DNA of 64,000 nucleotides from an uncultured Chloroflexia bacterium (GCA_963748235.1 CAVVHT010000009.1:826162-890161), one strand, 5' to 3'. Positions 11,161 to 44,298 are shown, numbered from the stretch's first letter. The notes: generated by a model from the sequence alone, not told the origin. A program made the numbers and translations.

Positions 11161-11211
11161 ACCTGCCGCGGATCTTGCGTAGCGCTCATCTGAACCCGGT
11201 GGCGGTAACGA

Positions 11212-12052: not shown

Positions 12053-12091
12053 CGAGTCAGGCTACGACTTGGGCCTAAACTCAACTGCGAG

Positions 12092-15849
<3,758 letters not shown>

Positions 15850-18373: not shown

Positions 18374-20038
18374 GACGCGCGGGGCTGATCCTGGCTCTGC
18401 TCGCGCTGCTCGGGTTGTGGCGCGCCGGCGACCGATTTCGAGCGCTGAGCTCATGTCGACCTCGGACCGACGGCCGCCGATGAGCAGGTCCAGTTCACGG
18501 TCAGCCTGCGGCTGCCCGGCGCGGCCGCCCTCGACGAGTACCTTGCCGGCCTCACATCGCCCGGCTCGCGCTACTACCGCAAGTACCTGCGCCCGGCCGA
18601 GTTCGGCGCCCGCTTTGGCCTCGACGACGAGCAGCTCGGGCGCGTCGTCGCGTGGCTCGAGCAGGGTGGCCTGGAGGTCGCCGCGTCGCCGCAGCGCACC
18701 TCGCTGGCGGTCAGCGGCCGCGTCGCGGAGGTGAACCGGCTGCTCGACATCACCCTCGTCGACCGCCAGAACGCGAGCGGTGACCGCTTCCACCGCCCTG
18801 TTGGCCAGCCGAGCGTGCCGCGATGACGTCGAGCGCCGACGTGGCAGCGATCCTGGGCCTCGACACCGAGCCGCTGATCGAGCCCGCGCTCGGCGGCATC
18901 CTCGCCGCCGGCGTCGGCGCTGACGGCCTGCTGCCGGCGACCGTTGCGCGCGCGTACGAGATCGAGCCGCTTCACGCGGCCGGGCTGCACGGCCAGGATC
19001 AGGCGGTCGCGATCGTCTCGTTCGACACGTTCACGCCGAGCGACGTCGACCTGTTCGACGAGCGCCAGGCCATCGACTCGCCGCCGGTCGAGCTGGTCCG
19101 CCTCGATGGCGCTCGAACCGAGCCCGGCCCGGGCACGGGCGAGGTCGCGCTCGACATCCAGGTCATCCGCGGCATCGCGCCGCAGGCGCGGATCATCAAC
19201 TACGAGGGGCCGAACTCGGCCGACGGGTTCGCCGGCATCATCAATCGCATCGTGGCCGACGACCAGGTGCGCATCGTGAGCATCAGCTGGGGCTTGTGCG
19301 AGAACCACGCCGGCCGGAGCACGCTCGAGGCGATGCAGCGCGAGTTCGCGGCCGCCTTTGCGGCGGGCATCAGCGTCTTCGCCGCGAGCGGCGACGACGG
19401 CGCCTACGACTGCCGCCGCGTCGCAGATCTCGGCGGATCCGTTCGAGCGCGACCTGTCGCTTGCGGTCGACTGGCCAGCCTCGAGCCCGAGCGTCGTGGG
19501 CGTTGGCGGCACTTTCCTCTCTACCCGCCAGGACGGCACGTACATCGAGGAGGCCGGCTGGGAGGAGCCACTCGGCGGTGGCGGTGGCGGTGGCGGGCTG
19601 AGCCGCTTCCAGGAGCGGCCCGACTGGCAGCGCGGAGCCGGGGTCGAAAACGCGGCCAGCAACGGCATGCGCCAGGTGCCCGACGTGGCCGGCCCGGCCG
19701 ACCCGACGAGCGGCTTCTTCATCGTCTACACCGAGCCGAGCGAAGGAGTTGTCGCCGGCCGCGTCGGCGGCACCAGCGCCGCGGCACCGTTCTGGGCTGG
19801 CTCGATGCTGCTCACCCAGCAGCTCGCTCAGCAGCAGGGCGTCGAGGCGCTCGGCGCCATCGGGCCGACGCTGTACGAGATCGCCGGCGAGCAGCCGGCC
19901 GGCGCCGTGTTCCACGACATCATCCGCGGCGGAAACCTGCTGTTCAGCGCCGGCCCGGGCTGGGACTTCTCGACCGGTCTCGGCACTCCCCGCGTTGCGC
20001 CGCTCGCCCAGGCGATCGTCGACCACCTCTCCGAGTGA
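18370..20038 (+). CDS. peptidase S53 (sedolisin/kumamolisin-like) with propeptide; about three apparent frameshifts
   Basis: Signal peptide (GTG start, LILALLALLGL); pro-kumamolisin-type propeptide (QVQFTVSLRLPGAAALDEYL...WLEQGGLEV); catalytic SGDDG and GGTSAAAPFWAG. Frame switches near 18450, 18820 and 19440. Gly8 run at about 19570. Confidence 0.75.
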
Positions 20039-20062
20039 CGCGCCACATCCAAGGGTGAGGCG

Positions 20063-21436
20063 CTAGCCCTCCAGCTGGTGCGCAGCCTCGCTGAAGAGGC
20101 CGCCCATCGCGCGCGATGTCGTCGGGAAGGCGGTGATCGTCTGCGCCAGTACCTCGATCCTGGTGCGCGTCTTGATCGCCAGCACGGCCATGTGAATCGC
20201 CTCTGACGCACCCGGGCCGGCGATGAACGCGCCGACGAGCTCGCGCGCGTCGCGGTCGACGACGATCGAAACGTGGCCGGATGCCTCCACCGCCTGGCCC
20301 TTGGCCGTTTCGGCAAGGTCGACCGTCAGCTCGAAGGCATCGATGCCCTTGTCCTTCGCCTGGTCGACCAGCAGTCCGACACCGCCCGTCTCGGGGTCGG
20401 TGTAGACGCAGCGCGGGATTGCCCGGTAGTCGGGCGTGACGTCGTCGCCGAGAGCAATCGCGACTGCCGTCTCGCCCTGGTAGTGCGCGAGGTGGGTGTG
20501 CATCTCGGGACCGGCCGGATCGCCAACGACGTACGTGTCGGGGGCAATGCGCATCTTCTCGTCGGGCGAGACGCGGCCCTTGACGATCTCGACACCGATC
20601 GCATCGAGACCCAGGCCGTCGAGGGGCAGCGTCCGGCCGATCGACAGCATCAGCTCGTGACCCTCGACCGACGTGCCATCGGCGAGCTTGACGACGTGAG
20701 CGCCATCCTTCCCGGCACTGGGCTCGACGCTCTCGGCACGGACGCCGAGGCGCAGCTCGACTCCGTCCGCGCGCAGCCCTTCGGCGATCGCCTCCGAGCT
20801 GCGCGGATGGTCGCGGTCGTTAAGCCGTTTCGGCGACTGGACGAGCGTGACCGGCACGCCATAGCGGGCGAAGACCTGGGCCATCTCGAGCCCGGTCGGG
20901 CCGCCGCCCAGGATGGCCAGGCTGCGCGGCAGGGTCGCGCGTGCTGGTCGCCTCGCGATTGGTCCACGGCTTGACCTGGTCGAGGCCGGGCAGGTCCGGC
21001 ACGGTCGAGCGGCTGCCCACGGCGACGATCAGGTTGCGACCTGTGATCTCGCGCGTGCCGCCGCCCTTGGTCATCTTCACGCGTCACCGCGCCCGGCCCG
21101 ATGATCGTCGCCTCGCCGCGGATCACCTCGGCGCCGGCGTCCTCGAGCCGCTTGACGTGGCCGCTGTCGTCGGGCCAGTCGAGCTTGACGCGGTTGATCA
21201 TGTAGTCGCGGAAGTCGGACGCCCGCGGCCATGCCATAGCCACTGCCCTTGGCGTGCACGGCCGCCGCGTGGAGCAGCGCCTTGGATGGCACGCACGCCC
21301 AGAACGGGCACGAGCCACCGAACAGCTCGCGGTCGATGATCGCCACTGTTGCGCCACGCCGCCGCGCCTCGTGCGCGGCGGCCTCGCCGCCCGCGCCGGC
21401 ACCGACGATGACGAAGTCGAAGTCGGGGCCGCTCAC
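20063..21436 (-). CDS. class I pyridine nucleotide-disulfide oxidoreductase (dihydrolipoamide dehydrogenase / mycothione-reductase-like), about three apparent frameshifts
   Basis: FAD motif DFVIVGAGAGG; redox-active disulfide GGSCPFWACVPSK; NAD motif LAILGGGP (out of frame); C-terminal dimerisation domain with ITAFPTTSRAMGG. Confidence 0.8.
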
Positions 21437-22640
21437 CTCTCCGCGCCGAGCAGCAGCGCGGCAATCAGCGTCGTGCGCGGCACGATCGAGTCGATCTCGA
21501 GGTACTCGCCCGGCGCGTGATCGGCGCCGCCAACTGGGCCGAGGCCGTCGAGCGTCGGCACGCCCATGCCCGACGTCGTGTTCGCGTCGGACGCACCACC
21601 GGTCGCCGCGTCACGCAGCTCGAAGCCCAGCCGAGCGGCGATGTCGATCGCCTGCTCGGCGAGCGCGGCAGTCGCCGGCTTCTTCTCCATGGGCGGCCAG
21701 AAGTGACGCTGCGTCGCGGTTGCCGTCACGTCGGCGACCGTGTTCGTGGCCGCGATCTCCCTGATCGCCGCCTCCACCTCTGCCATCGCCTCGCTCGTCG
21801 TGGCGCGGACGTCGATCTCGAGCTCGGTGCGCTCGGCGACGACGTTCGGCCGCGTGCCGCCGCGCACGACGCCGACGTTGACCGTCACGCCCGGCCAGCG
21901 GCCGTTGAGCGCGTGGAGCGCCAGGATCTTGTGCGCGGCCTCGAGCGTCGAGCTGCTGCCCTTTTCCGGCTCCACTCCTGCATGCGCGGCGCGACCGTCG
22001 ATTCGGATCAGGAAATCGGCGATTCCCTTGCGCGCACTGACGATGTCGCCGTTCTCGCGCGCCGACTCGAGCACGAGCGCAATCGACGCGCCCTCGGCGC
22101 AGCGCCGGATGACGGCAGTGCTCGTCGGCGAGCCGATCTCCTCGTCGGGATTGGCGACGTACACCAGGCGACCGAACGGCAGCCATCGCTGACCGGTGTC
22201 CCGGCCGGGTGGAGAGCGCGCAGCGCCCGCAACGCGTACAGCCCGCCGAGCAGGCCGCCCTTCATGTCGTCGACGCCGGGCCCGTAGGCACGCCCATCGC
22301 GGACGGTGAAAGGACGCTCGGCAACCGTGCCGTCGGCGAAGACCGTGTCGAGGTGGCCGACCAGCAGCGCTCGTGAGCTCCCGGCCCCCTCGAGCTCGCC
22401 GATGACGATGTCGCCGAGCTCGGCGTTGGCCTCGACCGTCACCGCCGCGCCCAGATCGGCCAGCTGATCGGCCATCCAGCGGCCGACCTCGTCGACGCCG
22501 TCCTTGGTGTACGAGCCGCAGTCGATGTTGACCAGTCGCTCGAGATCGGCCATGTAGGCGGGCAGGCTGGCCTCGATGTGGTCGCGCAGCCTGCCGAGCT
22601 CTTCGTCGGTGACCTGCCCGACCGTTGTGTCGATTGCCAT
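21433..22640 (-). CDS. M20 family metallopeptidase (ArgE/DapE/CPG2/Sapep-like), one apparent frameshift near 22200
   Basis: LLVGHLDTVF, GPGVDDMKGG, NPDEEIGSP, EYLEIDSIVPRTTLIAALL. Overlaps the downstream oxidoreductase start by 4 bp. Confidence 0.8.
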
Positions 22641-22680
22641 GTCGGCAGGGTAATCGACCGCCCATATACTCCGCCCCACC

Positions 22681-24530
22681 GTGCGTCTAGTCGAAATCCG
22701 CCTGCTCGACGGCCCGAACATCTATCGGCTGGAGCCGACGGTGCGAATTGAGGTCGTCGTCGGGCGCCGCCGCACCTGGTATGGGCAGCGATCGCCGGGC
22801 AGGCACGCGATCGTCAGGCTCGGCGCGCGCGTGTCGCGGCTTCCGCGGCGCCGTCATCGGTTGCGGAGCTGGCTGGATGGGTGCGCAAGCTTCACCGTCG
22901 CGCGCTCAAGCGAACCGTGCCAGTGACCATCCACCAAACGAGCGAGCCCGGTCGGTGGGTAGTCGCCTATCCGTGGCGCGATGGCAGCCAGGCCGAACTC
23001 ATCGCCCAGGCGGCGTTGCGCCTGACCGATCAGGCGAGCGACCGCCTGCTGGAGCGTGCCGTGCGCCGCATCCGCGACGCGGAGGGCGCCGCACCGCTGT
23101 GGATCACCGATGAGCGACGCCGCGCCGCAAATCCACGTCTGCAGCTGATCTCGGTCAGTGGCACGAACGGCAAGAGCACCACGACCAGGATGATCACCCA
23201 CATTGCCCGCGCCGGCGGCCGTCGCGTGGGCACGACGACGACCGACGGAGTGCTGATCGACGAAGAGATGATCGAGCCAGGTGACTTCAGCGGGCCACAG
23301 GGGGCGCGAGCCGTTATGCGCCACACCGAGGTCGAGGTTGGCGTCCTCGAGACTGCCCGGGGCGGCATCCTGCTGCGCGGCCTGGCGTACGAGTCGAACG
23401 AAGCCAGCGTGCTGACCAACGTCAGCGCCGATCACCTCGACCTGCAGGGTCTGCATACGCTGCCCGAGCTGGCCGAGGTCAAATCGGTCATCTGCCGCGT
23501 CACGCGACCGGAGGGCACGGTCGTGCTCAACGCCGACGATCCGCTGCTGGTGCCGATCGCGCGGCGAGTGCGCGCACCGGTGACCTTCTTCAGCCTCAAT
23601 CCGCGCAGCTCGCGCGTCCGATCGCACGTCGCTCGCGGCGGCACCGCCTTCGTGCTCGACGATGGCTGGATCGTCGAGCTGGCCGGGTCCAAGCGGCGGC
23701 GGATCGTGGCCGCGGCCGAGCTGCCGGCCACTCTCGGCGGGCTGGCGCGGCACAACGTCGCCAACGCGCTCGCCGCCGCCGCTGGTGCGCGGGCGATCGG
23801 CATGTCCTACCGCGCGATCGCCGACGGGCTGCGCGGCTTCCGCAACACGGCCGACCTGATGCCAGGCCGGCTGAACCTGTACCGCAAGGGTGATCGCCTC
23901 GTCGTCGTCGACTATGCGCACAACGAGGCCGGCCTGGCCGCGCTGTTCGACACGATCGAGGGACTCGTCGGCCGGCGTGGCAAGCGGCGCGCCACCGTGA
24001 GCGTGATCATCGGCGCGGCCGGCGATCGCCCGGACGATGCCATGCGCGCCGTCGGCCAGCTGGCCGCGCGGCGCGCCGACGAGGTCGCGATCAAGGAGGA
24101 CCTGCCCTTCCTGCGCGGCCGGACGCGGGCAAGTGCCATCGGCGAGCTGCGCGAGGGCATTCGTGCCGGCGGCACGAACCCCTCCTCGGCGCCGGTGTAC
24201 GAGCTGGAGCTCGATGGCCTGGTCGGCGAGCTGACGACTCCCGGCCGCATGGCCGCCACGGAAGACGGCACGCCGCGCGTGGTGATGCTGATGTGCCACG
24301 CCGAGCGCGACGCGGTCGCGCGCTACCTCGCGGGCGAAGGGTTCGTCGAGGTGGAGGACGTCGGCATCGCTCGGAGCGTTTCGCCCGCAAGCCGGCCTAG
24401 GGACGCCGGCGGTGAACCAGGGCCAGGAAGCCGATCGGCTCACCCTTCGGATCATCGCGCGGCTGGAACTCATCGCCCAGCTCATGGATGCGCCGCCTCA
24501 GCTCGGCCAGGTCGTCGGGTGCGAGCCTGA
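22681..24530 (+). CDS. cyanophycin-synthetase paralogue with N-domain fused directly to the Mur-ligase-like M domain (no ATP-grasp G domain); frameshift near 22870
   Basis: The N-terminus MRLVEIRLLDGPNIYRLEPTVRIEVVV parallels CphA LRILETRVLRGPNIWFRGPAIVMLVDL. TVPVTIHQTSEPGRWVVAYPWRDGSQAELIAQAALRL parallels TVAHIGKTRSAGATGQYNVVYEYREEEVGREAGRIAVAL. The Mur-ligase P-loop ISVSGTNGKSTTTRMI then follows immediately, where cphA has about 330 aa of ATP-grasp. The 3' end overlaps the ArsR gene, so the true end is uncertain. Confidence 0.75.
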
Positions 24531-24918
24531 CCCCGAGTCGAACGGTCGTCAGTGGGGCATCGTCGCCCGCCTCGAGCAGCTCGTCGCGAACGGCGTCGAG
24601 GACAGTCGCGGTGTGATCAGCACTCGGCAGCATCCGGATCTGCCACGACTTGCCCGTGCTGCGGTACGGCCGCTCCACCGAACCGCGCTTGCCGCGACGC
24701 GGCTCATCAGCGACCAGGAACCCACCGCTCACGAGCGCCTTGACGTGATGCAGGATCGTGCCCGGATCGCGGTCCAGCCGCTCGGCGATCTCCTTGTTGG
24801 TCAGCGCCTTGTCGATCGTCAGGCGCAGGATGCGCAGTCGCAGCGGATGACCGAGCGTGCGCATCTCGTCGGCCGTGGCGTCGCGTATCGGTGGCGCTGA
24901 TCGAGCAGTGATGGACAA
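24397..24918 (-). CDS. ArsR/SmtB-family winged-helix transcriptional regulator
   Basis: HPLRLRILRLTIDKALTNKEIAERLDRDPGTILHHVKALVSGGFL. Confidence 0.7.
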   Translation of the reverse strand: MSITARSAPPIRDATADEMRTLGHPLRLRILRLTIDKALTNKEIAERLDRDPGTILHHVKALVSGGFLVADEPRRGKRGSVERPYRSTGKSWQIRMLPSADHTATVLDAVRDELLEAGDDAPLTTVRLGVRLAPDDLAELRRRIHELGDEFQPRDDPKGEPIGFLALVHRRRP

Positions 24919-24936
24919 TTCCCCACTAGTGGACTA

Positions 24937-26080
24937 TTGTCCATCATTATGACATCACGACGTCCGCTCGGTTGGCTTGCCATCACTTCCATCACCGCTC
25001 TGGCCATCGTCGGGTGCGCCGGTGGCGCCGCTCCGACGCCGCCCGACTGCCCCCGACACTCACCGCAACGCGCGAGCGCGACGACTGAGCCGACCGAGAC
25101 GGCCACTCCTACCGATCAGCCCTCCCCGACCGGCACTCCCGCTGCGACCGCCACGGCGGCCCCGACCGACACTCCCGCGCCATCCGATTCGCCGTCGGCA
25201 ACGGCCACGGCACGGGCCAACGCTACCGACACGCCGGCCGGCGCATCGCCTGCGATCCAGGTCGGCACCGGGCCGATCGGCATCGTCGCGACCGAGGACG
25301 CCATCTGGGTCGCGACCTTCTACGACGGTGAGCTGGTGCGGATCGACCCCGAGACGATGACGGTCACCGACAACGTGCCCGTCGGCGACGGAGCGATCGG
25401 CGTGGCGTACGCCGTCGGGTCATTGTGGGTGGCCACTCACCTCACCGGTGAGCTCGTGCGCGTCGATCCCGAGACGCGCGAGGTCACGGCGCGAATCGAG
25501 GTCGGCGCCGAGCCCGAAGGCGTCTGCGGCGACGACGGCCAGGTGTGGGTGACGAGCGAGGCGGCCGGAGGCGCTGTTCGCATCGATCCCGAAACGAACG
25601 AGGTCGTGACCAGCGTGGCGGTCGGCCGCGCGCCGCGTCACTGCGGAGTCGGCTTCGGTTCGGTGTGGGTGACCAACTGGGGCTCGGCGACCATGACGCG
25701 CATCGATTCGGAATCGAACGAGGTGATCGAGACGATCGGGCTCCATTTCGGTCCCGAGGGGCTGGCCTTCACCGACACCGGCGTGTGGGTGGCCAACCAG
25801 ACCGCCGGCTCGGTCTCGCTGGTCGATCCCGAGACCAACGAGGAAACGACCGAGATCCAGATCGGCATGCTGCCCGAGGGCATCGCGATCGGCGACGACG
25901 GACTCGTCTGGGCGGCCACGACCCAGCTCGATCACATCGAGGGCGATCGATCCGGAGTCGGGCGAGATCGTCGAGACCCTCGAGACCGGCAACGAGCCAC
26001 GCCGCATCGTCATCGTCGACGGTCAGGCGTGGGTCACCAACACCGGTGCCGGCACGGTCTCGGTAATCCCGCTCGACTGA
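24937..26080 (+). CDS. lipoprotein with YVTN-type beta-propeller repeats (YncE-like); frameshift near 25930
   Basis: Lipobox LAIVGCAG, a PT-rich linker, then seven or more repeats of the form G..P.G.A......VWV.N...G.V.RIDPET.EV. Confidence 0.65.
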
Positions 26081-26086
26081 GGCGGG

Positions 26087-28902
26087 TTAGCCCTCTTCGA
26101 CCTCGAACTCGCCCGGGTGGGCGATGGCGCTGCCGCCGCCCTTGCGCCGCACTTCTTCCATCACCTGGCGGTAGGCGCCGGTGATGTCGTCGCTGCAGAC
26201 CATGACGAGATCGCCCGGGGTCGCCTGGGCCATGCCCGTCGTGACCGCGGCCATCTCGTCGGTGACTATCGAAGCCGTGGCACAGCGGCCACCCTCGCGT
26301 TGCGCCTTGCTCACGCCGGCCAGGACCAGATCGGCCGACTCACCCGGCTTGCGGCCGCGTAGCTTCTTGTCCTCGCGCACGACGATCGTGTCGAAGGCAT
26401 GGCCGGCCAATCGGCCGTACTCGCGGTGGTCGTCGTCGCGTCGGTCGCCGGGAATGCCGATCACGCCGATCGCGGTGCCGCGCCTGCCGCCGGACCCACC
26501 GTCGACCGCAGGGCTGCCGCGCTGGGCGGCCGCATCATGAGCTCGACGAACTCGGTCAGCCTGCGCATGCCATCGACGTTGTGGCAGTAATCGAGGAAGA
26601 CCTTGTAGCCGTCGACCTGGATCTCGTTGAGCCGGCCGGGTGCCTGGAAGAACGACGTGGTGAAGGTGCGCAAGCCCTGGCGGATGTCGTGCAGGTGCGC
26701 ACCGGCGGCCCACGCTGCACCGGCCGCGGCGAGCGCGTTGGCCACGTTCATCCGCGCGCGGCCCTCGAAAGTGGCCGGGATCTGGTGCGTGTAGAGCAGC
26801 GGCATCGTGCGCTCGGCGTGGCGCAGCACGACCAGCTCGCCGTCGTCGGTCTGCTGCACGACCATCGCCGCGCCGCCGCGGCCGCAGTGGCCGTCGACCC
26901 GGTCGTAGCCCTCCTCGCCGCGTTCGCGGGCCATCGAGAAGTAGACGACGCTGCCGCGGCTCTGGCGGGCCATCCGCGCGACAAGCGGATCGTCGGCATT
27001 GAGCACGGCCATGCCCGCGCGCGGCACGGCATCGACGATGACCGACTTGACCTGCGCCAGCTGGCTCATCGTCTCGACGCCGTTCAGCCCGAGGTGGTCG
27101 CCGGTGACGTTGGTCACGACGGCGACGTCGTTGCGGTCGTAGCCGAGCCCCTCGCGCAGGATGCCGCCGCGCGCGACCTCGAACACCGCCGTGTCGACCG
27201 ATGGGTTCTGGAGCACCATCTGCGCCGAGCGCGGGCCGGACATGTCGCCCTTCCGGATGAGCCGGCCGTCGACGACGATGCCGTCGGTCGTGGTCATGCC
27301 CACCCGACGGCCCATCAGCTTCAGGATGTGGCCGATCATCCGCACCGTCGTCGTCTTGCCGTTGGTGCCGGTCACCCAGATGATCGGGATTCGCGCGTTC
27401 GAGCCCTGCGGGAAGAGCAGGTCGAGGACCGGCTTGGCGACGTACTGCGGCTCGCCCTCGGTCGGATTGGTGTGCATCCGGAAGCCCGGCGCGGCGTTGA
27501 CCTCGACGATCGCCCCGCCCTGCTCGCGAACGGGCACGGTGATGTCGGGCGCGATGAAGTCGATCCCGGCGATGTCCAGCCCGACCACCTGCGCGGCGGT
27601 CTCGGCAATCTCGACGTTGTCGGGATGCGCCTCGTGCGTCCGATCGATGGCCGTGCCGCCGGTCGACATGTTGCCCGTCGCGGCGAGCATCACCCGCTGG
27701 CCCTTCTTGGGCACGTCGTCGAGCCCCAGGCCCTGCTTGCGAACCAGCTCTTCCGCGCCGGCCGTGATGCGGATCCGCGTCAGCACGCGCTCGTGACCGA
27801 TGCCGCGCCGCGGGTCGCTGTTCTCCTTGTCGACCAGCGCGCGGACGCTGAGCTTGCCGTCGCCCACGACACTCGCCGGCACTCGTTCGGCGACCGCGGC
27901 CAGCTTGCCGCCGACGACGAGCACGCGATAGTCGTTGCCGCGCACGAAGGTCTCGACGACGACGTCGCCGCCGCGGCTCTCCTCGCGCGCCAGCGTGTAC
28001 GCGTCGCGGACGGCCTGCTCGTCGCGCAGGTCGAGGGCCACGCCGCGCCCGTGGTTGCCGTCGAGCGGCTTGACGACGACCGGGTAGCCGAGCTTCTCGG
28101 CCGCTTCGACGGCGCCGTCGGCCGAGCGCACGACCTGCGAGCGCGGCACGGGCATGCCGGCCGAGCTGAGCAGCGTGTTGGTCAGGCTCTTGTCGGAGGC
28201 GATGTCGACACCGATCGCCGACGTGCGCGAGGTCATCGTCGCCCGGATGCGCTGCTGGTGGACGCCCTGCCCGAGCTGAACAAGGCTGTGCCGGTCGAGC
28301 CGGATCCACGGGATGTCGCGCGAAACGGCCTCGTCGACGAGCGCCTGGGTCGACGGCCCGAACGCGTTCCGCTCGGCGAGCCGGATCAGCCCCTCGAGCT
28401 CATCGGCGAAGTCGAACGGCGCCGCCTCGGGGTTGACGAGGAAGTTGACGAGCGCGACCGCGATCCGGCCGGCCTCGCGGCCGACCTCCTCCTCGCGATA
28501 CTCGTAGACGACGTTGTACTGGCCCGTTGCGCCCGCCGAGCGCGTCTTGCCGATATGGGCGACGGTGCCGGCCAGGCTCTGCAGCTCGAGCGCGATGTGC
28601 TCGCTGACGTGGCCCAGCCACGTCCCATCATTGAGCCGGGTGACGAAGCCGCCGCGGCGGCCGAGCGAGCAGGCGTGGTCCTCGAGCGACGGGATGAGCT
28701 GCAGCAGCGCCTCGTTGAAGTGCGGGATCTTGTTGCTCGGCCACTCCTCGAGCTCGCCCAGGTCGACGAGCATCACGATTGCCGGGCCGCGGAACCAGAT
28801 GTTCGGACCGCGCAGCACGCGCGTCTCGAGGATGCGCAGTGTCGGCTGGGGCCCTTGGGACTGCCCTTGGGTCTTCCGTCGCGGTGCTGCGGCTTTCGCC
28901 AT
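26087..28902 (-). CDS. cphA: cyanophycin synthetase (N + ATP-grasp + Mur-ligase domains); frameshift near 26500
   Basis: N domain LRGPNIW; ATP-grasp PVVVKPLDGNHGRGV; M-domain P-loop IIWVTGTNGKTTT; C-terminal tail GVIGIPGDRRDDD...DLVMVCSDDITGAYRQVMEEV recovered in a second frame. The start is probably a little downstream of 28902. Confidence 0.9.
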
Positions 28903-28919
28903 CGGCCGCCTTGTCGTCG

Positions 28920-29756
28920 TCAGCTGGACGCGAGCGAGTCGGCGTCGAGCGCGCGCAGCATCGGCGCCGCTACCCGCTCTCGACTTTCCAGGTCGAAACG
29001 GTAGCCGCTCGGCAGCGAGTGGAGCCGGACGTTGCTGATCATCAGCGGACGATGCGCCTTGACCTCCCAGGCGTCGGTCTCGGAGTCGGCGCCGTCGACG
29101 ATCGTCACGCTGCGCCGGCCGATGACCTCGAGCACGCGGTCAGGTCCGACCACGCCCGCGGTGTCCTCGTCGATGCCGATCCCGAGCAGCGACGGGTTCT
29201 GGGCGATGATCGCCAGCAGCCGCCCGAGCCGATTTCGCTGCTCGAAGTGCTGGTCGATGATCACGCCGGGCAGGATGCCCAGGCCGGCCGCCATCTGGAC
29301 CATGCGCTGCTTCGGCGTCGCGCCACTTGCCCCGAATGCGACCATGTGCGTGCTCATCGCGGAGGCGCCCGCGCTCGTGCCAGCCACTACGGCGCCTTCG
29401 CGGTGGCGCCGAACAATGGCCTGGGCGAGCGGCGTGCCGCCGATCATGGACGACAGGCGCAGCTGATTGCCGCCGGTCAGGAAGATGCCCGTCGCATCGC
29501 TCACCGAGCGGACGGAGGTCGGCTCGGCACATTGCGCGCGAGTGGTGGTGTGGATCGGGTAGACATCGCTCGCGCCCAGCTCGGTGAAGATCCGCCGGTA
29601 CATCTCGCCGGCCAGCGGGCCGAGCGACGAAGCGGCGCTGATTACCGCGATGCGCGCGTCCGGGCCGCCGGCAAGCCGAATGAAGCGCGCCAGGATGACA
29701 CGCTCCCGGACCTTGTCTTCCGCGCCACCAATGATGATGACATGCCCCTCGGTCAT
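28920..29756 (-). CDS. cphB: cyanophycinase (peptidase S51)
   Basis: VIIIGGAEDK; catalytic-serine region VAGTSAGASAM; ILPGVIIDQHFEQRNRLGRLL. Immediately upstream of cphA on the same strand. Confidence 0.9.
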   Translation of the reverse strand: MTEGHVIIIGGAEDKVRERVILARFIRLAGGPDARIAVISAASSLGPLAGEMYRRIFTELGASDVYPIHTTTRAQCAEPTSVRSVSDATGIFLTGGNQLRLSSMIGGTPLAQAIVRRHREGAVVAGTSAGASAMSTHMVAFGASGATPKQRMVQMAAGLGILPGVIIDQHFEQRNRLGRLLAIIAQNPSLLGIGIDEDTAGVVGPDRVLEVIGRRSVTIVDGADSETDAWEVKAHRPLMISNVRLHSLPSGYRFDLESRERVAAPMLRALDADSLASS

Positions 29757-30710: not shown

Positions 30711-31517
30711 GAGTTGGCGGCTTGGCAGCGCGGACACCAGTAGGTGCGACGCGGGTTGCCACCTTCGCGCGCTCGGCTCGTTGCCGACTTGATCCTCGTG
30801 CCGCATCTCCGGCATGGCCGGCCGGTTCGGCCGTAGACATACAGGTCGCCGGGCGTGCCGGCCGGCGTAGTCACCCGCGCGCCACCGGCGCTGTTCGCCT
30901 TGACCAGCGTCGCGCCCCGATCGAGCATCCGGCGCAGCGTCTCGTTTGGCACGGCCGCCAGCGGCGTGAAGGGATCGAGATGCTCGATGAAGCACAGCTC
31001 ACTGCGATAGACGTTGCCCAAGCCGGCAACCGCGCGCTGGTCGAGCAGCGCGTCTCCGACAGCAATGTCCGCGCGCGCCGGCTCACGCAGCGCGGCCAGG
31101 GCGGCATCAAGATCGACGTCGTGGCGCGCGAGATCCGGCCCAAGGCGGCGCAGGCCCGGGTGAAGGTCAACCGCTCGGGTGTCCATCAGCTCGACCGTCG
31201 GCGCGTCGAAGCAGACCGCGACCCAATCTGACGTTTCGAGCACGGCAACCGCGCGACTCGGCGAGCGCCGCCATGGCTCGGCCGAGCGGTAGCGGTGCCA
31301 CGATCCGTGCAAGCCGAGATGGGTATGCAGCGTCATGCCGCCGTCAAACGCGATCAACAGGTGCTTGCCGCGCGACTCGACCGAATTCGACCGTCTGGCC
31401 GACCAACCGCTCGAGCTGCGCTCCGCCCGCGCGGCCCCTGGCCGATGTGATCGTCTTACGAGACAGGACCGGGGACAGCGCAGCCGCGATTCGGGCGAGG
31501 GTGTCACCCTCAGGCAC
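30707..31517 (-). CDS. nei: Fpg/Nei-family DNA glycosylase (endonuclease VIII-like); frameshift near 31390
   Basis: My translation from the GTG at 31517 gives MPEGDTLARIAAALSPVLSRK, the catalytic N-terminal Pro. It continues ESRGKHLLIAFDGGMTLHTHLGLHGSW, with a C-terminal zinc finger CRRCG...CPRCQ. Confidence 0.8.
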
Positions 31518-34500
31518 GCAACAGCCACCCTCGATATGAGCGCTGGAAGCCGGCCGTCGCTAGCGCGTCGGAATGCGGCGAGTCGGCGACCGGCAACCCG
31601 TCGACGCGCTCGACCTGGAGTGAGCGGAAGCGGCCGTCGGCGAGCAGCTGGCGGAGAGCGTTGAGGGCTACCGCGGCGGTCTCACGATCGGCGAACGCGG
31701 GCAGTGTCTGGAGCGTCTTGCCGCCACGCTCGAGGTAGACGACCGGCTCGCCGTCGACGATCACCACGTACGCGCCGGCGGCCCTTGCCAGCGGCCGGCG
31801 ATCGTCGTCCGACCAGCGCGGCCAGGCGAGCGCCGCGCCGTACGGGTTGGCCGGGTCCGACGCGGCGAGCAGCTGGACCTCGGTCGCACCTCGGCCGCCG
31901 CCGGCATCGGCACGTTCGGCGCGCAGCCGATCGAGTGCCGCCGGAATGCAGAACTGCGCGCCGCCAAGGCCCTCCACGAAATAGCCACGTCGAACCCGGC
32001 CGCGCTCCTCCATCTCGCGCAGAACCGGGTAGACGACCGAAAAGCCGCCCGTCAGGCCCTCACCCGCCACCGTGTCGCGCGTGACCACGCCGTACGCGTC
32101 CAGCAGACGCAGCGCGTGGGCGTGACGTCGCTCCGTCTGGGTCGGTTCCGTTCCGCCTCTCAGCGCGGTTGCCGTCGCGATGGTGTCGCTGACGAGCGAC
32201 CACCGGCCGGCCGCCTCGGGCGGGCCCATGCGCGCTGCGCTGGTGAAGCGTGGTCGGCGAGCGCCCGCGGCACCGGCACGACGCGCTGTGCCGGTGCGTG
32301 GCCAGCGCAGCGCGCGCAGCGGAGCGAACGTGTCGTTGGTCACCTCTGTCGCCCACACGAGGTCCCACAGCGCGTCGAGCAGGTCGCGCTCACGCACCGG
32401 GCGCTCGCCGCGCTCGGCAGCAGTGCGCAGCGCCGCCGCCAGGACGTCGCGGTAGAAGGACGCTCCCCGTTCGCGCAGCTGCGCTCCGGATCGCGTCGTG
32501 CAGCCACGAATCGGGTCTCTCCTGGCTGGCGTCCGCTGTCGGAAGCAGCAGTGACAGACGGTCGGGCCGGTAGAGCGCAACCCGACCGTCATCACGACCG
32601 AGCGAGCCAAGGCCGATCCAAACCACCTCGCCCGCCGCGCCCAGCTCGTCGAGCAGCCGTGGCGAGTAGCCGGCAACTCGGGCGGGCAGCACGTCGCGCT
32701 CGAGGACGCTAGCCGGTAGCGGCGTGCCCTCGAGCTGGGCGATCACCTCGGCCAGCCGATCGACGCCACTGCGCCGCTCGCCGATGCCCTGCCAGCGCGG
32801 CAGGAAGCGCGCCAAGTGCCTGCGGCTCGACCGGCTCGACCTCGCGCCGCAGCCTGGCCAGCGAGCGGCGCCGAAGAAGGCGGAGCACCTCGGGGTGGCA
32901 CCACTCGCGTTCGACACCGCCCGGCCGGAACTCGCCACGCAGCAGCGTGCCGGCGACGAGCATCCGTTCCAGCTCCGCCTCGACCTCCTTGACCGGCAGG
33001 CCCCAGCGCGTCGCCGGCTCGGTGGCCACGAATGGACCGTGATGCCGCGCCCACCTGGTCAACAGGCCCGCCAGCGCGTCCTGCGATTGTTCGAGGAATG
33101 CCTGTGGCACGCCGACCGGCGGTGAGATCCCGAGCGCGTCGCGGTATCGAGCGACGTCCTCGATCGCGATCCAGCGCTGCTCGGCGCGGATGCGGACGCG
33201 TACGGCGCGCCGGTCGGCGGCCAGCGCCTCGAGCCACTCCCCGGCGGCGGCGGCACGGGCGCGATCGTCCGGGCCACGCACGCGATCGGCGACCTCGCCG
33301 GCAGTCAGGTCGCCCAGTCGACGCAGGAGGTCGTGCACCGCATCGGCCGAGCCCGCCAATCGGTCGGGCGCCAGGAACGCCAGCTCTAATTCGAGCTCGG
33401 CCAGCGCGCCAGCATCGAGCAGCTCGCGCAACTCCTCGGCGCCGAGCAGCTCGCGCAGTAGGTCGCGATCGAGCGCCAGCGCCTGGGCTCGGCGATCGAC
33501 GAGCGGCGCGTCGCCCTCGTACATGTACGAGGCGATGTAGTCGAACATCAGCGAGCTCGCGAACGGCGATGCGCGCCGGGTCTCGACGCTCACAAGCCTG
33601 ATCTCGCGGCGCTCGATGGCGGACAGGATGCCCTTCAGCGCGGGCAGGTCGAAGACGTCCTGGAGCACCTCGCGGTACGTCTCGAGGATGATCGGGAATG
33701 AGCCATAACGACTGGCCACGCCGAGTAGCTGTGCCGAGCGCTGGCGCATCTGCCACAGCGGCGTCCGCTGGCCCGCCCGACGGCGCGGCAGCAGCAGCGC
33801 CCGCGCCGCGTTCTCCCTGAAATGGCTCGAGAAGAGAGCCGAACCACCGAGCGAGCCGATGATCAGCTCCTCGACATCCTCAGAGCCGATCCGCACTGCC
33901 TCCTCGGCCGCTGCGACTGCTCCCCCGCCGCCTGGGCCGTCGCCGTCGACGGCAAAACCGTCGCCGCCCAGGCCCTCGCCGCCCAGCTCGTCGGTCATAG
34001 GCAGGCGCACGACGATCCCGTCGTCGGACCAGATCGGCTGCACGTCGAGGCCGAGCCGCTCGCGAAGTCGTGCCTCTATCGCCAGCGCCCACGGGGCGTG
34101 GACCCGAGCGCCGAACGGCGTCAACAGGCAGATGCGCCAGTCGCCCAGCTCGTCGCGGAAGCGCTCCAGGACGATCGTCTTGTCCGTCGGCAGCACGCCC
34201 GTGACCGACTGCTCTTCGTTCAGGTACTCGATCAGGTTGCGCGCGGCGAGCTCGTCGAGCATGTGCTCCTCGCGCAGCTGCTTTTCCGCTCGCTTCCGGC
34301 CGCGGCTCCCGTCGGCGACCGTCTCGGAGATCGTGCGCGTGAACTCGCCCAGCGCTCGGCCGAGCTCGATCGGCCGGCCCGGCCCGTCGCCCTTCCAGAA
34401 GGGCACCTTGCCCTGCTCGCCCGGAGCTGGCGAGACGAGCACGCGATCGTGCGTGATCTGGTCGATCCGCCACGCACTGGCACCGAGCAGGATCACCTCC

Positions 34501-36263
34501 CCTTCGCGTGCCTCATAGACCATCTCCTCGTCCAACTCGCCCACGCGCCGGCCTCCGCCGCGGGCTGATCGAGCCTTCGTGGTGGCACGCCGACCATCGA
34601 CGTCCCCGTCCTCGGTCAGGAAGACGCCGAACAGGCCGCGGTCGGGAATGGTTCCCCCGCTGATCACCGCGACAGTGCGCGCATCGCGGCGGCTCTCCAC
34701 CGTGCCCGCGGTGCGATCCCAGACGATCCGCGGCCGCAGCTCAGCGAACTCGTCGCCCGGGTAGTGCCCGGCGAGCATGCCCAGCGTCGCCTCGAACGAA
34801 TCGCGTCCCAGGTCGGCGAAGTTCTCGGCTCGACGGACGAGGTCGTAAATCTCGTCCACCTTCCAGCGCCGGTCGGCGGCGGTGGCAACGATCTGCTGGG
34901 CAAGCACATCGAGCGGGTTGCGCGGGATGACCGTCGGCTCGATCCGGCCAGCGAGCATCTCCCTCGCAACGACCGCCGACTCGAGCAGGTCGCCGCGGTA
35001 CTTGGGGAAGATCACGCCCTGCGACGGCTCTCCCACCTGGTGACCGGCCCGACCGACCCGCTGGAGCCCGCGGGCGACGGATCCGGGCGATTCGACCTGG
35101 ATGACGAGATCGACGGCGCCCATGTCGATCCCCAGCTCGAGGCTGCTCGTGGCGACGAGGGCGGGCAGCCGGCCGTCCTTGAGCTGCTCCTCGATGAGCA
35201 GCCGCTCCTCGCGTGCCAGCGACCCATGGTGGGCTCGGACGATGTCCTCACCGGCCAGGTCGTTGAGTCGCAGCGCCAGCCGCTCGGCGAGACGGCGGCT
35301 GTTGACGAACACAATCGTCGAGCGGTGTGCCCGGATCAGCTCCAGGATGCGCGGGTGGATCTGGGGCCAGATCGAGCTGCGCTGATCGGCGCCCGCGGCT
35401 GAGCCGCCGGGCTGCTGGTCGAGCGGCAGGACCTCACCGATCGCGGCCATGTCCTCGACCGGAACGACGACCTCGAGATCGAGCGTCTTGCGTACGCCGG
35501 CGTCGACGATACGGACCGGTCGCAGCTCGCCTGATCGCTCCCCGTCCGGGCTCGCTGAACGGCCGCCAAGGAAGCCGGCCACGACACTCAGCGGACGCTG
35601 CGTCGCGGACAGGCCGATGCGCTGTGGCGGCTTCTCGGTGAGTGCCTCTAGTCGCTCGAGCGACAGCGCCATATGGGCGCCACGCTTCGTGCCCGCGAGG
35701 GCGTGGATCTCGTCGACGATCACCCACTCGATGCCGCGCAACGCCTCACGCGCCTGCGAGGTGAGCAGCAGGTAGAGCGATTCGGGCGTGGTGACCAGGA
35801 TGTCCGGTGGCCGCTTGCCGAACGCGCGGCGCTCTTCGGCGGGCGTGTCCCCGGTGCGCATCGCCACGTGTACTTCGCGCGTCAGGTCGTGCTCGCCGCG
35901 ATTGCGCGCCGCCAGCGCGATACCGGCCAGCGGCGAACGAAGGTTTCGATTCACGTCGTGGACGAGCGCCTTCAACGGCGACACGTAGAGCACGCGCAGG
36001 CGGCGCAGCGGATCGTCCGGGACCGGCTCGCTCATCAACCGATCGAGGCACCACAGGAACGCCGCCAGCGTCTTGCCCGAGCCGGTCGGAGCGCAGATCA
36101 GCGTGTGCTCGCCGGCGGCGATGGCCGGCCAACCGAGCGCCTGGGCGGCGGTCGGCGCATCGAACGAAGCAGCAAACCAGTCGCGCGTGGCGGGCGTGAA
36201 CGCGGCGAGCGGATCACCCGCCGGAGAGTCGGTCGGAAGCTTCGTGGAAGTTCGCCGGGACAC
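31510..36263 (-). CDS. lhr: Lhr-family ATP-dependent DNA helicase (about 1580 aa; two apparent frameshifts near the C-terminal third)
   Basis: Helicase motifs CAPTGSGKT, DEIH, SAT, QRVGRAGH. The Lhr C-terminal extension is recovered in ORFs 32938->32390 and 32676->31510. Confidence 0.85.
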
Positions 36264-36605
36264 GGGCGTCGAGTATAGGTCTGAGGGCTAAATCGAACAA
36301 GCGTGCGCTTTGTGGAAACACAAGGTGACGCACCCAGAGATCCTCGGGTTGCTATCCCCGAAATCGGCGTCGACTCGAATCAGGTACCCGTGCAGTGGTT
36401 GCTCGGCACCATTTCCACTCATCTGAGCGTACAAGGCGCCTGGTTGGAGATAGCAACCTGCACGTCGCTAAATGCGAGCCATGGTCCAGGCGGCCCCTAT
36501 CACGACGAGGATCGAAAAATGAGCCCTTGGCCGTAGGTCCTGGCGCGCAAGGGGTACTTCGCGCTCCTTATTCCAGAGGGGTCTGGTGCGTAGCGTCACG
36601 CACCG

Positions 36606-38738
36606 ATGGACAAAGAGGGAGGGTGGGTTCAGCCTGCTGCGCGCAGCCGGACCCGACGGTACACATTTCTGACCCTGCTGCTGCTCGCGGTTGCGGCTCC
36701 GGCAGGTTTCGTGATGGCCGGCGAGGCGCGCCAGCCGTACATCGTCGTGTTCGACGATGGGGCCGTTGGCGTCCCGGCAGGGGCACTCGAAGCCGTCGGC
36801 TCCGGCCGTACGGTTCCGTTCCGCGTCCAGGCGATGCCAGCATCGATGCGCGCCGCGACGATCCCAGATTCACGCGCCACGTCCGGCGGTGCCAGAGTCG
36901 ATGAGACCGACACGCGCGACCGCAGCGTCGATGCAAACCTCGTCAACAGCCAGGTACGCGAGATCGCCGCCCGCAACCGGGTCGCCGTCGACCACGTCTT
37001 CAGCAACGCCCTGGGTGGCTTCTCGGCGCGCCTGACACGGACGCAGCTCGGCGTACTCGGGCGAGACCCCGCAATCGCGACGATCATGCCCGACGAACAG
37101 GTCGATCTTGGCGACGTCATATCCGACATGGACGCTGGTGGCGTGCCCACCACCAGCAACCCGGGCCTACGCGTGCCCGCCGGTGTGCGCCGCGTCGGAG
37201 CCCGTCAGTCGGCCGTCATGGGCGTCCGCAGCGGAGGTCGCGTCAATGCCGACGTGGCAATCCTCGATACGGGCATCCAGCGCGACCACCCCGATCTCAA
37301 CGTCGTCGGCGGTTTCAACTGCACCAGTCGCGATCGCAACAAGTGGGATGACAACAACGGCCACGGCACGCACGTGGCGGGCATAGTCGGCGCACTCGAC
37401 AACAGCATTGGCGTAGTCGGAGTCGCCGCCGGCGCGCGGCTCTGGTCGGTCAAGGTCCTCGATCGCAGCGGCCACGGCTCGATGTCATCGATCGTGTGCG
37501 GCATCGACTGGGTCACCGCCCAGCGCCAGCCCGGTGCGCCGAGCCGGCCGCTGTTCGAGGTGGCCAACATGAGCATCAGCTTCACCTTGCCGGGTTCGAA
37601 CGATCGCGACTGCGGCCGGCGACTCCACGACGGCGTCCATATGGCCATCTGCCGCTCGGTCAAGCGCGGCACGACCTATGTCGTCGCAGCCGGCAACGAG
37701 TCGCGCAACGCACGCCGCAACCGTCCCGCCGCGTACGACGAAGTCATCACCGTGTCGGCGATGGCCGACTACGACGGACGGCCCGGCGGCCACGGCAAGG
37801 CCTCCGACTCCTGCCCCTACTGGAGCTCCGAGCCCGACGACGCGTTCGCCCGTTTCAGCAACTTCGGATCGGACATCGACCTGATCGCTCCCGGCAAATG
37901 CGTCCTTTCGACGTACACACGCGGCCGCTACGCATGGATGAGCGGCACGTCGATGGCGTCGCCGCACGTCGCCGGCGCGGCCGCAATCTACCGTTCGATG
38001 TATTCGCGGGCCACTCCATATCAGACCCGCCTCGCTCTACAGGCGGTTGGCACGCTCGACTGGCGGACCTCGTCCGACCCCGATCGAGGCGCGCACGAGC
38101 GAGCGGTCTGGGTCGGCAACTTCAGGGCCATGCCCGACTTCGGCATGAGCGCTCGAACGCCGGACGGTTCGGCAGGCGCCGGTCAGCGCTTCGCGATTGA
38201 CGTGACACTCAGCCGCGTCGGCGGTTTCGCCGATCCGGTTGCGGTCAGCCTGGTCGAGCCACCGGCTGGTTTCTTGGCCGGACAGACGCTGATCGGCGGG
38301 TCGACCGGCGAGCTCGAGGTGCGCGTCGGTGATGACGTCGATCCGGGCGAGCACACACTCACCGTCAAGGCCATAGCGGCCGACGTCGAACGGAACGTGA
38401 CACTTCTGATCACGGTCGCTGGCGATCCCCCGAGCGCATCATTCGTAGCGCCCGCGGCGGGTTTGACCAGTCAGTCGGCAACCACTGCCCGAGTCGGCTG
38501 GGTCGAAGCTGCCGGAGATGCCCCGATCGCCACACGACAGGTCGAGCGCCAGTCCGCGCCAATTGGTGACGCCGGCAGCTGTGATGAAGCCGCATTCGTG
38601 ACCGACTACTCGTACGGCCAAATCGAGGCACCCACCGAGCAGCTGCGCAGGGGCTACTGCTACCGCTGGGTGCTCACCCTGACCGACACTGCCGGAGAGC
38701 AGGTGACCGTCTCTTCAGGAACCGTCCGGGTCGACTAG
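36606..38738 (+). CDS. secreted subtilisin-like serine protease (S8) with I9 propeptide and C-terminal extension
   Basis: Signal peptide; catalytic triad in VAILDTGI, NGHGTHVAGIV, GTSMASPHVAGAAA. Confidence 0.9.
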   Translation: MDKEGGWVQPAARSRTRRYTFLTLLLLAVAAPAGFVMAGEARQPYIVVFDDGAVGVPAGALEAVGSGRTVPFRVQAMPASMRAATIPDSRATSGGARVDETDTRDRSVDANLVNSQVREIAARNRVAVDHVFSNALGGFSARLTRTQLGVLGRDPAIATIMPDEQVDLGDVISDMDAGGVPTTSNPGLRVPAGVRRVGARQSAVMGVRSGGRVNADVAILDTGIQRDHPDLNVVGGFNCTSRDRNKWDDNNGHGTHVAGIVGALDNSIGVVGVAAGARLWSVKVLDRSGHGSMSSIVCGIDWVTAQRQPGAPSRPLFEVANMSISFTLPGSNDRDCGRRLHDGVHMAICRSVKRGTTYVVAAGNESRNARRNRPAAYDEVITVSAMADYDGRPGGHGKASDSCPYWSSEPDDAFARFSNFGSDIDLIAPGKCVLSTYTRGRYAWMSGTSMASPHVAGAAAIYRSMYSRATPYQTRLALQAVGTLDWRTSSDPDRGAHERAVWVGNFRAMPDFGMSARTPDGSAGAGQRFAIDVTLSRVGGFADPVAVSLVEPPAGFLAGQTLIGGSTGELEVRVGDDVDPGEHTLTVKAIAADVERNVTLLITVAGDPPSASFVAPAAGLTSQSATTARVGWVEAAGDAPIATRQVERQSAPIGDAGSCDEAAFVTDYSYGQIEAPTEQLRRGYCYRWVLTLTDTAGEQVTVSSGTVRVD

Positions 38739-44276: not shown

Positions 44277-44298
44277 CCACCGATCCGACTAACTATCC
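44273..44298. promoter_or_regulatory. left copy of a perfect 26-bp inverted repeat, overlapping the M16 start codon
   Basis: CCATCCACCGATCCGACTAACTATCC is the exact reverse complement of 44481..44506. Confidence 0.7.

Follow-up and report, generated by a model that had tools for sequence, protein, structure and literature searches.

Introduction

The current picture of cyanophycin metabolism includes one or two synthetases (CphA1 and CphA2), a cyanophycinase, and three families of dipeptidases known as IadA, IaaA, and CphZ. CphA1 consists of an N domain, an ATP-grasp or G domain, and a Mur ligase-like M domain; the roles of its active-site residues have been described, and D585A/H586A inactivates the M domain (PMC9262961). 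Cyanophycinase products are beta-Asp dipeptides, and the hydrolases known to act on such dipeptides are IadA (an amidohydrolase), IaaA (of the Ntn-asparaginase type), and CphZ (M14) (PMC10206079; PMC9974463), while 27% of the genomes with cphA are without iadA/iaaA (PMC9974463). Here we describe a cyanophycin locus from an uncultured Chloroflexia bacterium, located in a stretch of 64,000 nt (GCA_963748235.1, CAVVHT010000009.1:826162-890161) that we call the window. In this locus, which belongs to a soil genome of the Chloroflexota class Limnocylindria, the cyanophycinase gene cphB and the synthetase gene cphA are accompanied by a paralog of cphA that lacks the G domain, named N'-M in this study, and by a gene for a metallohydrolase of the M20 family.

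The reading that we prefer, and regard as modestly probable, is a four-gene cyanophycin unit of the class Limnocylindria in which N'-M would act as a trans-acting ligase and M20 as a candidate beta-Asp-Xaa hydrolase, with a two-gene insertion in the present lineage. The cphB-cphA pair in itself is ordinary. What is new is the conserved presence of N'-M and of an M20 protein similar to carboxypeptidase G2 (CPG2) beside cphBA, together with the G-less kin that adjoin cphA in three or more additional lineages. The window has a G+C content of 66–72%, and its gene map was drawn from codon-position GC and open reading frame (ORF) analysis combined with searches against Pfam and NCBIfam; searches for Rfam families and tRNA genes gave no matches in it. 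All gene identities that a first-pass annotation of this DNA had named are real, each being matched in Pfam or NCBIfam.

A Four-Gene Neighborhood Conserved in Limnocylindria

The best matches of N'-M are proteins of approximately 570 aa in Chloroflexota metagenome-assembled genomes (MAGs) labelled Candidatus Limnocylindria or Limnocylindrales. By scanning one genome per species with an N'-M alignment, we collected 80 loci, essentially all of them from Limnocylindria, and mapped the window proteins onto these loci by tblastn; the conservation counts consider only loci with enough flanking sequence. In the window, N'-M (22681-24400, plus strand) is divergent from M20 (21433-22640, minus strand), with 40 bp between them, and convergent with the minus-strand genes cphA (26087-28902) and cphB (28920-29756). 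The first-pass annotation was right about the minus-strand cphB-cphA pair, and its layout is amended here with respect to the strand and orientation of the paralog. The same arrangement is seen throughout the related loci: M20 is found within 700 bp of N'-M, in divergent orientation, in 62 of 64 loci (in the other two at 3.9 and 6.6 kb), cphA is convergent with N'-M within 10 kb in 38 of 40 loci, with one further locus at 9.4 kb, and cphB accompanies cphA in every case. Identity across the loci is 49–89% for N'-M, 65–96% for CphA, and 70–97% for CphB (46 loci), and since that of N'-M goes down to 49%, the four-gene arrangement outlasts ordinary synteny. It is thus very probable, in our judgment, that cphA, cphB, N'-M, and M20 constitute a conserved neighborhood.

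The other genes around them have a sporadic distribution. An ArsR-like regulator is present in 6 of 60 loci, a YVTN beta-propeller protein in 7 of 60, and a pyridine-nucleotide disulfide oxidoreductase (Pyr_redox) in 3 of 53. Of the genes that the first-pass annotation had expected to find conserved beside cphA in relatives, M20 and the paralog are indeed conserved, and the ArsR, propeller, and oxidoreductase genes are not. In related loci the length of the spacer that separates N'-M and cphA varies from 12 bp up to 8.4 kb. Its cargo differs by clade and comprises the ArsR and propeller genes, a DUF2071-like gene, a gene for a TrkA-like channel, or one for a luciferase-like monooxygenase. In the closest relative (L001), a clean deletion of 1.44 kb (L001:11572-11830 versus window 24471-25907) has removed ArsR and the propeller, leaving only the final 24 codons of the former and the 3' end of the latter, and the four cyanophycin-linked genes are intact.

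The Canonical cphB-cphA Pair

The product of cphB is an apparently intact intracellular cyanophycinase (S51 serine peptidase) of 278 aa, which scores 276.9 bits with TIGR02069 (cutoff 126.6), matches PF03575, and shows a readable GTSAGAS serine motif. Only 18 nt separate the gene from the start of cphA downstream of it, and this short gap suggests that cphB-cphA is a canonical operon. The cphA gene, whose frame is broken in the window, encodes a cyanophycin synthetase 1 of approximately 940 aa with N-G-M architecture, matched by TIGR02068, PF18921, ATP-grasp, and Mur_ligase_M. The larger frame piece alone (26461-28902) reaches 1066.6 bits with TIGR02068 against a cutoff of 850, the protein aligns end to end with Synechocystis CphA1, and its best match in the PDB is 7LG5 (E = 7e-231). 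Four motifs can be read in the window CphA, namely the primer-generating Cx19HxxEH, DGNHG of the G domain (equivalent of H267), the P-loop GTNGKT, and the M-site DH (equivalents of D585/H586), and all four are present in 38 of the 38 full-length Limnocylindria CphA sequences that were extracted. Judged by these motifs, the N-G-M synthetase is complete, and its predicted primer-generating Zn, ATP-grasp, and M sites are intact. Limnocylindria CphA proteins are approximately 930–950 aa long versus 870–880 aa for cyanobacterial CphA1, and the extra length is partly found in an M-lid insert (window 26461-26540) that precedes the GDRRDDD motif and is variable and Ala/Pro/Gly-rich.

N'-M, a cphA Paralog without the G Domain

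N'-M starts with GTG at 22681, and its frame is broken in the window. Homologs begin with MRLVEIRLLDGPN..., which resembles the N-terminus of CphA, and residues 1–115 of N'-M align with residues 3–133 of the CphA N domain (hhalign E = 1.6e-5, probability 79%), PF18921 itself being unmatched. The segment that bears Cx19HxxEH in CphA is replaced, and HxxEH occurs in 0 of 71 orthologs. After the N' part comes a short stretch left over from the beginning of the G-core (…P.WI.D…), and the M domain follows immediately. An ATP-grasp domain is absent from N'-M: there is no Pfam match, TIGR02068 covers positions 476-819 only, and the Foldseek alignment to 7LG5 skips G. The description as a G-less cphA paralog, given in the first-pass annotation, is correct.

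In the M domain, the P-loop GTNGKS and an Asp-His pair (N[VI]S.DHL), aligned to D585/H586 of SuCphA1, are found in 68 of 71 orthologs, and the lid motifs LRGR and GDRPDD are invariant or nearly so (48–71 sequences). TIGR02068 gives 369 bits for the window N'-M and 387 bits for an intact homolog (P0007), both below the cutoff of 850. Pfam matches are limited to PF08245 and PF02875, and all Mur models of NCBIfam remain far below their cutoffs. An AlphaFold2 model of P0007, built from a 48-sequence alignment, has a pLDDT of 91.2 and a pTM of 0.91, and its best PDB matches in Foldseek are CphA1 structures, with a TMq of 0.80 over N + M for 7LG5. Because it scores below the CphA equivalog cutoff and is without the Mur N-terminal domain, N'-M is, on these profile matches, strictly a member of neither the CphA nor the Mur ligase family.

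As read, the ORF of N'-M continues to 24530. The comparison with L001 and a second relative (L015) and a three-frame comparison identify this tail as an indel product here, although some homologs carry a similar tail, and the true stop is probably the TAG at 24398-24400. After indel correction the convergent stops of N'-M and ArsR would overlap in the palindrome CTAG (window 24397-24400). In three related loci (L002, L003, and L012) there is a possibly real 3' overlap of approximately 75 nt between N'-M and ArsR, where the N'-M tail is antisense of the ArsR C-terminus.

Several simpler origins of N'-M were considered and rejected. It is not a frameshifted remnant of a second full-length cphA, as M20 starts 40 bp upstream and leaves no room for a G domain; moreover, proteins of approximately 570 aa are the rule among its homologs in more than 100 clusters, which also counters the idea of a fragment. 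Neither does it compensate for a defective M domain of CphA, the M-site motifs being kept in 38 of 38 full-length CphA. A recent lineage-specific truncation of the resident cphA is contradicted by a crude tree in which G-less M domains form their own clades (see below).

The M20 Hydrolase

The M20 gene, also frame-broken in the window, encodes a CPG2-like dinuclear metallohydrolase of approximately 402 aa in which both the catalytic domain PF01546 and the dimerization domain PF07687 are matched. Its best PDB match is CPG2 (1CG2, E = 4e-38). Equivalents of H112, D141, E175-E176, E200, and H385, which comprise the five metal ligands and the catalytic Glu, align with 1CG2, and the motifs are kept in 51–55 of 56 orthologs. 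The protein has no signal peptide and is hence predicted to be cytoplasmic. The intact L001 ortholog, which is 94% identical to the window protein, scores 297.5 bits with PRK06133 (glutamate carboxypeptidase; cutoff 349) and passes no NCBIfam cutoff.

CPG2-type enzymes cleave N-acyl-amino acids. Both beta-Asp-Arg and the side branches of cyanophycin are N-acyl-arginines with a free alpha-carboxylate, and therefore hydrolysis of beta-Asp-Xaa by M20 can reasonably be expected; the earlier suggestion of M20 as an alternative beta-Asp-Arg hydrolase is chemically plausible. Our assignment of M20 as a beta-Asp-Xaa hydrolase is nevertheless tentative, a possibility that falls somewhat short of being probable. 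Neither Pfam nor NCBIfam connects the M20 protein with the IadA, IaaA, or CphZ families. No IadA-like gene was detected in the window or in the 80 loci by tblastn with a partial IadA-like query (from L081), a weak search that covers ±10 kb only. Descriptions of an M20 enzyme in cyanophycin clusters, or of a G-less CphA, were not found in the searched literature, many subscription papers being outside it.

The Divergent Control Region of M20 and N'-M

A scan of 9.6 kb for sigma-70-like promoters returned two hits only. One of them, TGGACA-17-TATTGT (24912-24940), lies just before the start of the propeller gene. The other, TCGGCA-17-TATACT (22642-22670), ends 10 nt before the GTG of N'-M, in the control region (22641-22680) that separates this gene from M20. 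This divergent region is approximately 40–90 bp long in the loci and 40 bp in the window. Intergenic comparison reveals a TA[TC][AC]CT hexamer 7–11 nt upstream of the N'-M start in 70 of 75 loci and a TAGACT-like hexamer that most loci have about equally far from the M20 start. These back-to-back -10-like boxes are mostly 17–18 bp apart, so that each is roughly at the -35 position of the other, and they are located approximately 8–10 nt from the start codons, with no Shine-Dalgarno sequence. M20 and N'-M appear to be leaderless and expressed from overlapping divergent promoters, which supports the start codons assigned to both genes. Such a predicted layout suggests that the regulation of M20 and N'-M is coupled, being either co-ordinate or mutually exclusive.

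G-less Relatives in Other Lineages

An exhaustive search among representatives of 50%-identity clusters yielded many G-less CphA-like clusters of 520–620 aa. Some of them match N'-M over its full length, and others share the M domain only, behind a different N-terminus of approximately 170 aa. A Thermoanaerobaculia MAG (L082) has its G-less gene and cphA-cphB in the convergent orientation of the window. In a Myxococcota MAG (L081) the G-less gene directly follows cphA, and cphB and an amidohydrolase gene are close by. Among Thermomicrobiales, one locus (L086) has a G-less gene convergent with cphA-cphB, and two (L084 and L085) have no cphA within 8 kb. In all three of these Thermomicrobiales loci (L084:7013-9635, L085:7028-9632, and L086:6898-9638) the N'-M homolog comes after co-directional genes for an Rce1-like (CPBP) intramembrane protease and a ParB-like protein, with cphA-cphB adjoining in one of the three.

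In a locus from an unplaced lineage (L083:8001-12029), two G-less genes of 567 and 570 aa, the latter with a recognizable PF18921 N domain, flank a gene for an S-adenosylmethionine (SAM)-methyltransferase, and no full-length cphA or cphB is found within 8 kb. This pair may represent a cyanophycin-independent use of the G-less family. In a crude neighbor-joining tree of the M domains, constructed without bootstrap, all full-length CphA proteins (Limnocylindria, Myxococcota, Acidobacteriota, and cyanobacteria) group together and the G-less proteins fall in separate clades. This topology argues for G-less proteins as an old paralogous lineage, not recent truncations.

Proposed Function and Its Significance

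In CphA1, the substrate of the M site lies between the N domain and the M-core, and the M domain needs a chain whose terminal Asp is undecorated (PMC9427784). The former point would explain why N is retained along with M in N'-M, and the keeping of just these two parts would be expected if the enzyme still binds cyanophycin and is limited to ligating side chains. The paralog keeps the P-loop, the catalytic Asp-His, and, in its model, the arrangement of N domain and M-core that forms the polymer-binding groove in CphA1. Restricted to the M-type reaction, N'-M would ligate Arg or another amino acid, in an ATP-dependent manner, to the beta-carboxyl of undecorated Asp, and it would do so in trans to CphA, either completing and re-decorating the polymer or altering its side-chain composition. 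We consider the case for N'-M as a trans-acting M-type side-chain ligase on cyanophycin to be evenly balanced. M20, for its part, would cleave the amide bonds of N-(beta-aspartyl)-amino acids, which is the bond type made by M domains. It could thereby free Arg or Lys together with Asp from the dipeptides derived by CphB, or strip side chains, and may fill the step that is carried out elsewhere by IadA, IaaA, or CphZ.

If true, an M-only paralog would be a new enzymatic actor that uncouples the attachment of side chains from the growth of the backbone. Uncoupled ligation could explain natural variation in polymer composition and possibly offer a tool for tailored cyanophycins. The CPG2-like M20 could supply the missing final step of catabolism in Limnocylindria, an abundant class in soil and freshwater, and is a candidate that can be tested. 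Both proteins are small and look soluble, and intact homologs exist (P0007 and the L001 orthologs). A wider generalization, speculative and rather doubtful at this point, is that G-less paralogs, meaning N'-M together with its kin of approximately 565 aa in Myxococcota, Acidobacteriota, and Thermomicrobiales, are old, widespread, and unrecognized stand-alone side-chain ligases, acting in trans on the polymer and paired in Limnocylindria with a bond-removing M20. Such ligases might install a side chain other than that of CphA, or re-load Arg onto a persistent poly-Asp scaffold, and this would imply a reversible cycle of side-chain charge and discharge as well as a fourth family of hydrolases for cyanophycin-derived dipeptides.

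Broken Reading Frames

The first-pass annotation had called the locus complete. The sequence as read departs from this description, with indels that break cphA, N'-M, M20, and the propeller gene. The window was aligned to L001, which is a long-read MAG, and to L015, which is a short-read one, each with approximately 90% nucleotide identity to the window, and this alignment revealed window-specific indels of 1–2 nt at 20936, 21084, 21233, 22186, 22833, 24366-24396, 25941, and approximately 26509; L001 and L015 are in frame at all of these sites. In cphA, a 1-nt deletion at approximately 26509-26512 splits the gene near TIGR02068 position 756, where frame A (26461-28902) accounts for model positions 1-755 and frame B (from 26087) for 757-860. 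This frameshift lies inside the variable low-complexity M-lid insert, and the orthologs in L001 and L015 are intact. In N'-M, a 2-nt insertion at approximately 22833 places the first 45 codons in another frame, and two further shifts are found at the 3' end (24366-24396). A 1-nt deletion at approximately 22186 distributes PF01546 and PF07687 of M20 on two frames, and a 1-nt insertion at approximately 25941 leaves the last 45 codons of the propeller, which is intact in L015, out of frame. The oxidoreductase has three breaks (20936, 21084, and 21233), and its Pyr_redox_2 and Pyr_redox_dim matches cover the C-terminal half only, in a single frame. Genes for MetH (12126-15247), a sedolisin/kumamolisin-type peptidase (18449-20058), and Lhr (31510-36287) are also split, over two to four frames each. 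Since the indels are spread over the whole window and the relatives are intact, the frameshifts are most likely assembly indel errors and not a feature of the cyanophycin locus.

ArsR, the Propeller, and Other Neighbors

The two genes inserted between N'-M and cphA encode an ArsR-like winged-helix regulator of 173 aa (24397-24918, minus strand) and a YVTN beta-propeller protein (24952-26080, plus strand). The regulator matches HTH_20 (PF12840; 1.1e-11) and HTH_5 (2.6e-5), scores 28.1 with NF033788 (ArsR/SmtB) against a cutoff of 55, and contains zero cysteines. The propeller scores 100.8 bits with TIGR02276 (cutoff 27.85), and its N-terminus MTSRRPLGWLAITSITALAIVGC, read directly, displays a signal peptide and an IVGC lipobox followed by a Pro/Thr/Ala-rich linker, so that the protein is a probable lipoprotein. 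In a related locus (L014, approximately 10,550-12,400) the propeller ORF has 616 aa, with an extra N-terminal region in front of the YVTN repeats that by eye is similar to an alpha/beta-hydrolase. The position of the pair 3' of cphA, its sporadic distribution, and its deletion in L001 indicate that ArsR and propeller are an independent two-gene module inserted in a variable spacer. Paired head-to-head with the propeller gene rather than placed in front of cphBA, ArsR has as its more likely targets that gene and its own.

Downstream of M20 on the same minus strand is the pyridine-nucleotide disulfide oxidoreductase gene (20063 to approximately 21400), whose product is similar to lipoamide dehydrogenase and MerA. 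The gene lies just outside the interval 21433-29756 that had been assigned to the cyanophycin locus; its occurrence in relatives marks it as a local neighbor only. The wider neighborhood is rich in peptidase genes, with the sedolisin, a large subtilase (36594-38738), and a tandem pair of M16 (insulinase-type) peptidases. The M16 pair and a tandem pair of major facilitator superfamily (MFS) transporter genes are at 41338-44288 and 44471-47306 of the window.

Alternative Explanations

The broken frames raise the question of whether the locus consists of decaying pseudogenes in an organism that no longer makes cyanophycin, as cphA, N'-M, M20, the propeller, and Pyr_redox are all frameshifted as read and the indels extend beyond homopolymer runs. 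Yet MetH, Lhr, and the sedolisin gene of the same window are broken likewise, and away from the indels the window proteins are 89–97% identical to intact L001 orthologs, with no in-frame stops or larger deletions. Split genes among the related loci are, in addition, almost exclusively those of long-read "MFD" contigs, not short-read ones, and we consider decay very unlikely. A different view of the locus is the one expressed in the first-pass annotation, where the whole set of seven genes works as one unit, ArsR, propeller, and oxidoreductase among them, and ArsR controls cphBA. The genes adjoin each other in the window, as they do in about ten related loci, but this contiguity is outweighed by the low counts of the three additional genes, the L001 deletion that spares the cyanophycin genes, and the presence of different cargo at the same spot in other clades. 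The location of ArsR is 3' of cphA, in a head-to-head pair with the propeller gene and away from the cphB promoter, which leaves control of cphBA by ArsR unsupported; equally unsupported is the extracytoplasmic propeller as a partner in cyanophycin metabolism, given that it is clade-specific cargo. A seven-gene unit is consequently extremely improbable.

Two other explanations accept the four-gene neighborhood and differ in what the proteins do. N'-M could be a non-catalytic or regulatory partner of CphA, for instance a subunit of a hetero-oligomer or a polymer-binding factor that influences chain length, granules, or primer supply. The M-core of CphA1 contacts the N domain and three G-cores in the tetramer (PMC9427784), so that an N-M protein could dock there, and N'-M has lost the Zn site of its N domain and evolves faster than the co-resident CphA, as the identity ranges given above indicate. 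The near-invariance of the P-loop, Asp-His, LRGR, and GDRPDD would be unexpected for a purely structural protein, and a solely non-catalytic role is in our view unlikely. Similarly unlikely, in our estimate, is that M20 and N'-M act on some other beta- or gamma-linked amide, such as a small peptide, a cofactor tail, or a cell-wall-related compound, with the proximity to cphBA reflecting ancestry. This idea draws on the four loci that have no cphA within 8–10 kb (L057, L083, L084, and L085), on the pairing of two G-less genes with a methyltransferase in L083, on the variable distance and cargo between N'-M and cphA, and on the fact that the nearest characterized relative of M20 cleaves N-acyl-glutamates such as folate. 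It is opposed by the presence of cphA-cphB within 10 kb in 38 of 40 Limnocylindria loci, where ordinary neighbors are not kept, and by the recurrence of cphA adjacency in three other lineages. N'-M is also nearest to CphA1, not to Mur ligases, in both sequence (E = 1.9e-81 versus 1e-16) and fold, and the N domain that it appears to retain is specific to cyanophycin synthetases.

The four-gene cyanophycin unit that we favor has its own points of weakness. The substrates of N'-M and M20 are deduced solely from homology and neighborhood, and by analogy with CphA1, whose M site accepts only an undecorated C-terminal Asp (PMC9427784), the scope of a trans-acting M enzyme could be limited. The locus set was retrieved via N'-M, and the counts thus apply to cphA neighborhoods containing N'-M; even so, the four loci named above carry N'-M or G-less genes with no cphA in reach. 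The M20 partner is found only in Limnocylindria loci and is absent beside the G-less genes of the other lineages examined, where the neighbors in other phyla are an Rce1-like protease, an ADP-ribosylglycohydrolase, and a methyltransferase, and the linkage of M20 and N'-M could partly be inherited synteny. Finally, the occurrence of window indels outside homopolymer runs leaves room for genuine pseudogenization.

Comparison with Known Systems

Among the described proteins, N'-M is closest to CphA1 of Synechocystis sp. UTEX2470 (7LG5/7LGJ). Its M domain is 37% identical to 7LGJ over 417 columns, and in the modeled protein a recognizable, CphA-like N domain is oriented relative to M as it is in CphA1 (TMq 0.80). 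Unlike CphA1, N'-M is without the ATP-grasp core of about 320 residues and without the Cx19HxxEH Zn site, and is therefore predicted to be unable to extend the Asp backbone or to generate primers. The cyanobacterial CphA2 is a similar case of a reduced CphA paralog that has kept one ligase activity and has no peptidase motif in the N domain. The reduction has, however, taken the opposite direction: CphA2 consists of N + G with a truncated, inactive M and re-polymerizes beta-Asp-Arg, whereas N'-M keeps M and drops G (PMC10273328). The two also differ in distribution, CphA2 being cyanobacterial and N'-M and other G-less forms belonging to Chloroflexota, Myxococcota, and Acidobacteriota. With MurE, other Mur ligases, and pseudomurein peptide ligases, N'-M shares the central ATPase and the C-terminal fold (PF08245 and PF02875; Foldseek E of approximately 1e-18 to 1e-21). 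It differs from them in having an N-terminus that resembles the CphA N domain instead of the N-terminal domain that binds UDP-N-acetylmuramic acid (UDP-MurNAc), and in a sequence match far weaker than that to CphA1.

The M20 protein resembles IadA, IaaA, and CphZ in being clustered with cphA and cphB, and CphZ in particular in being a zinc hydrolase akin to deacylases of N-acyl-amino acids. It is separated from all three by its fold and family, which are M20/CPG2-like and include a dimerization domain. CPG2 of Pseudomonas sp. RS-16 (1CG2) is periplasmic. M20 has the metal ligands and the dimerization domain of this enzyme, and it differs in an identity of approximately 30%, in its predicted cytoplasmic location, and in belonging to a cyanophycin and not a folate context.

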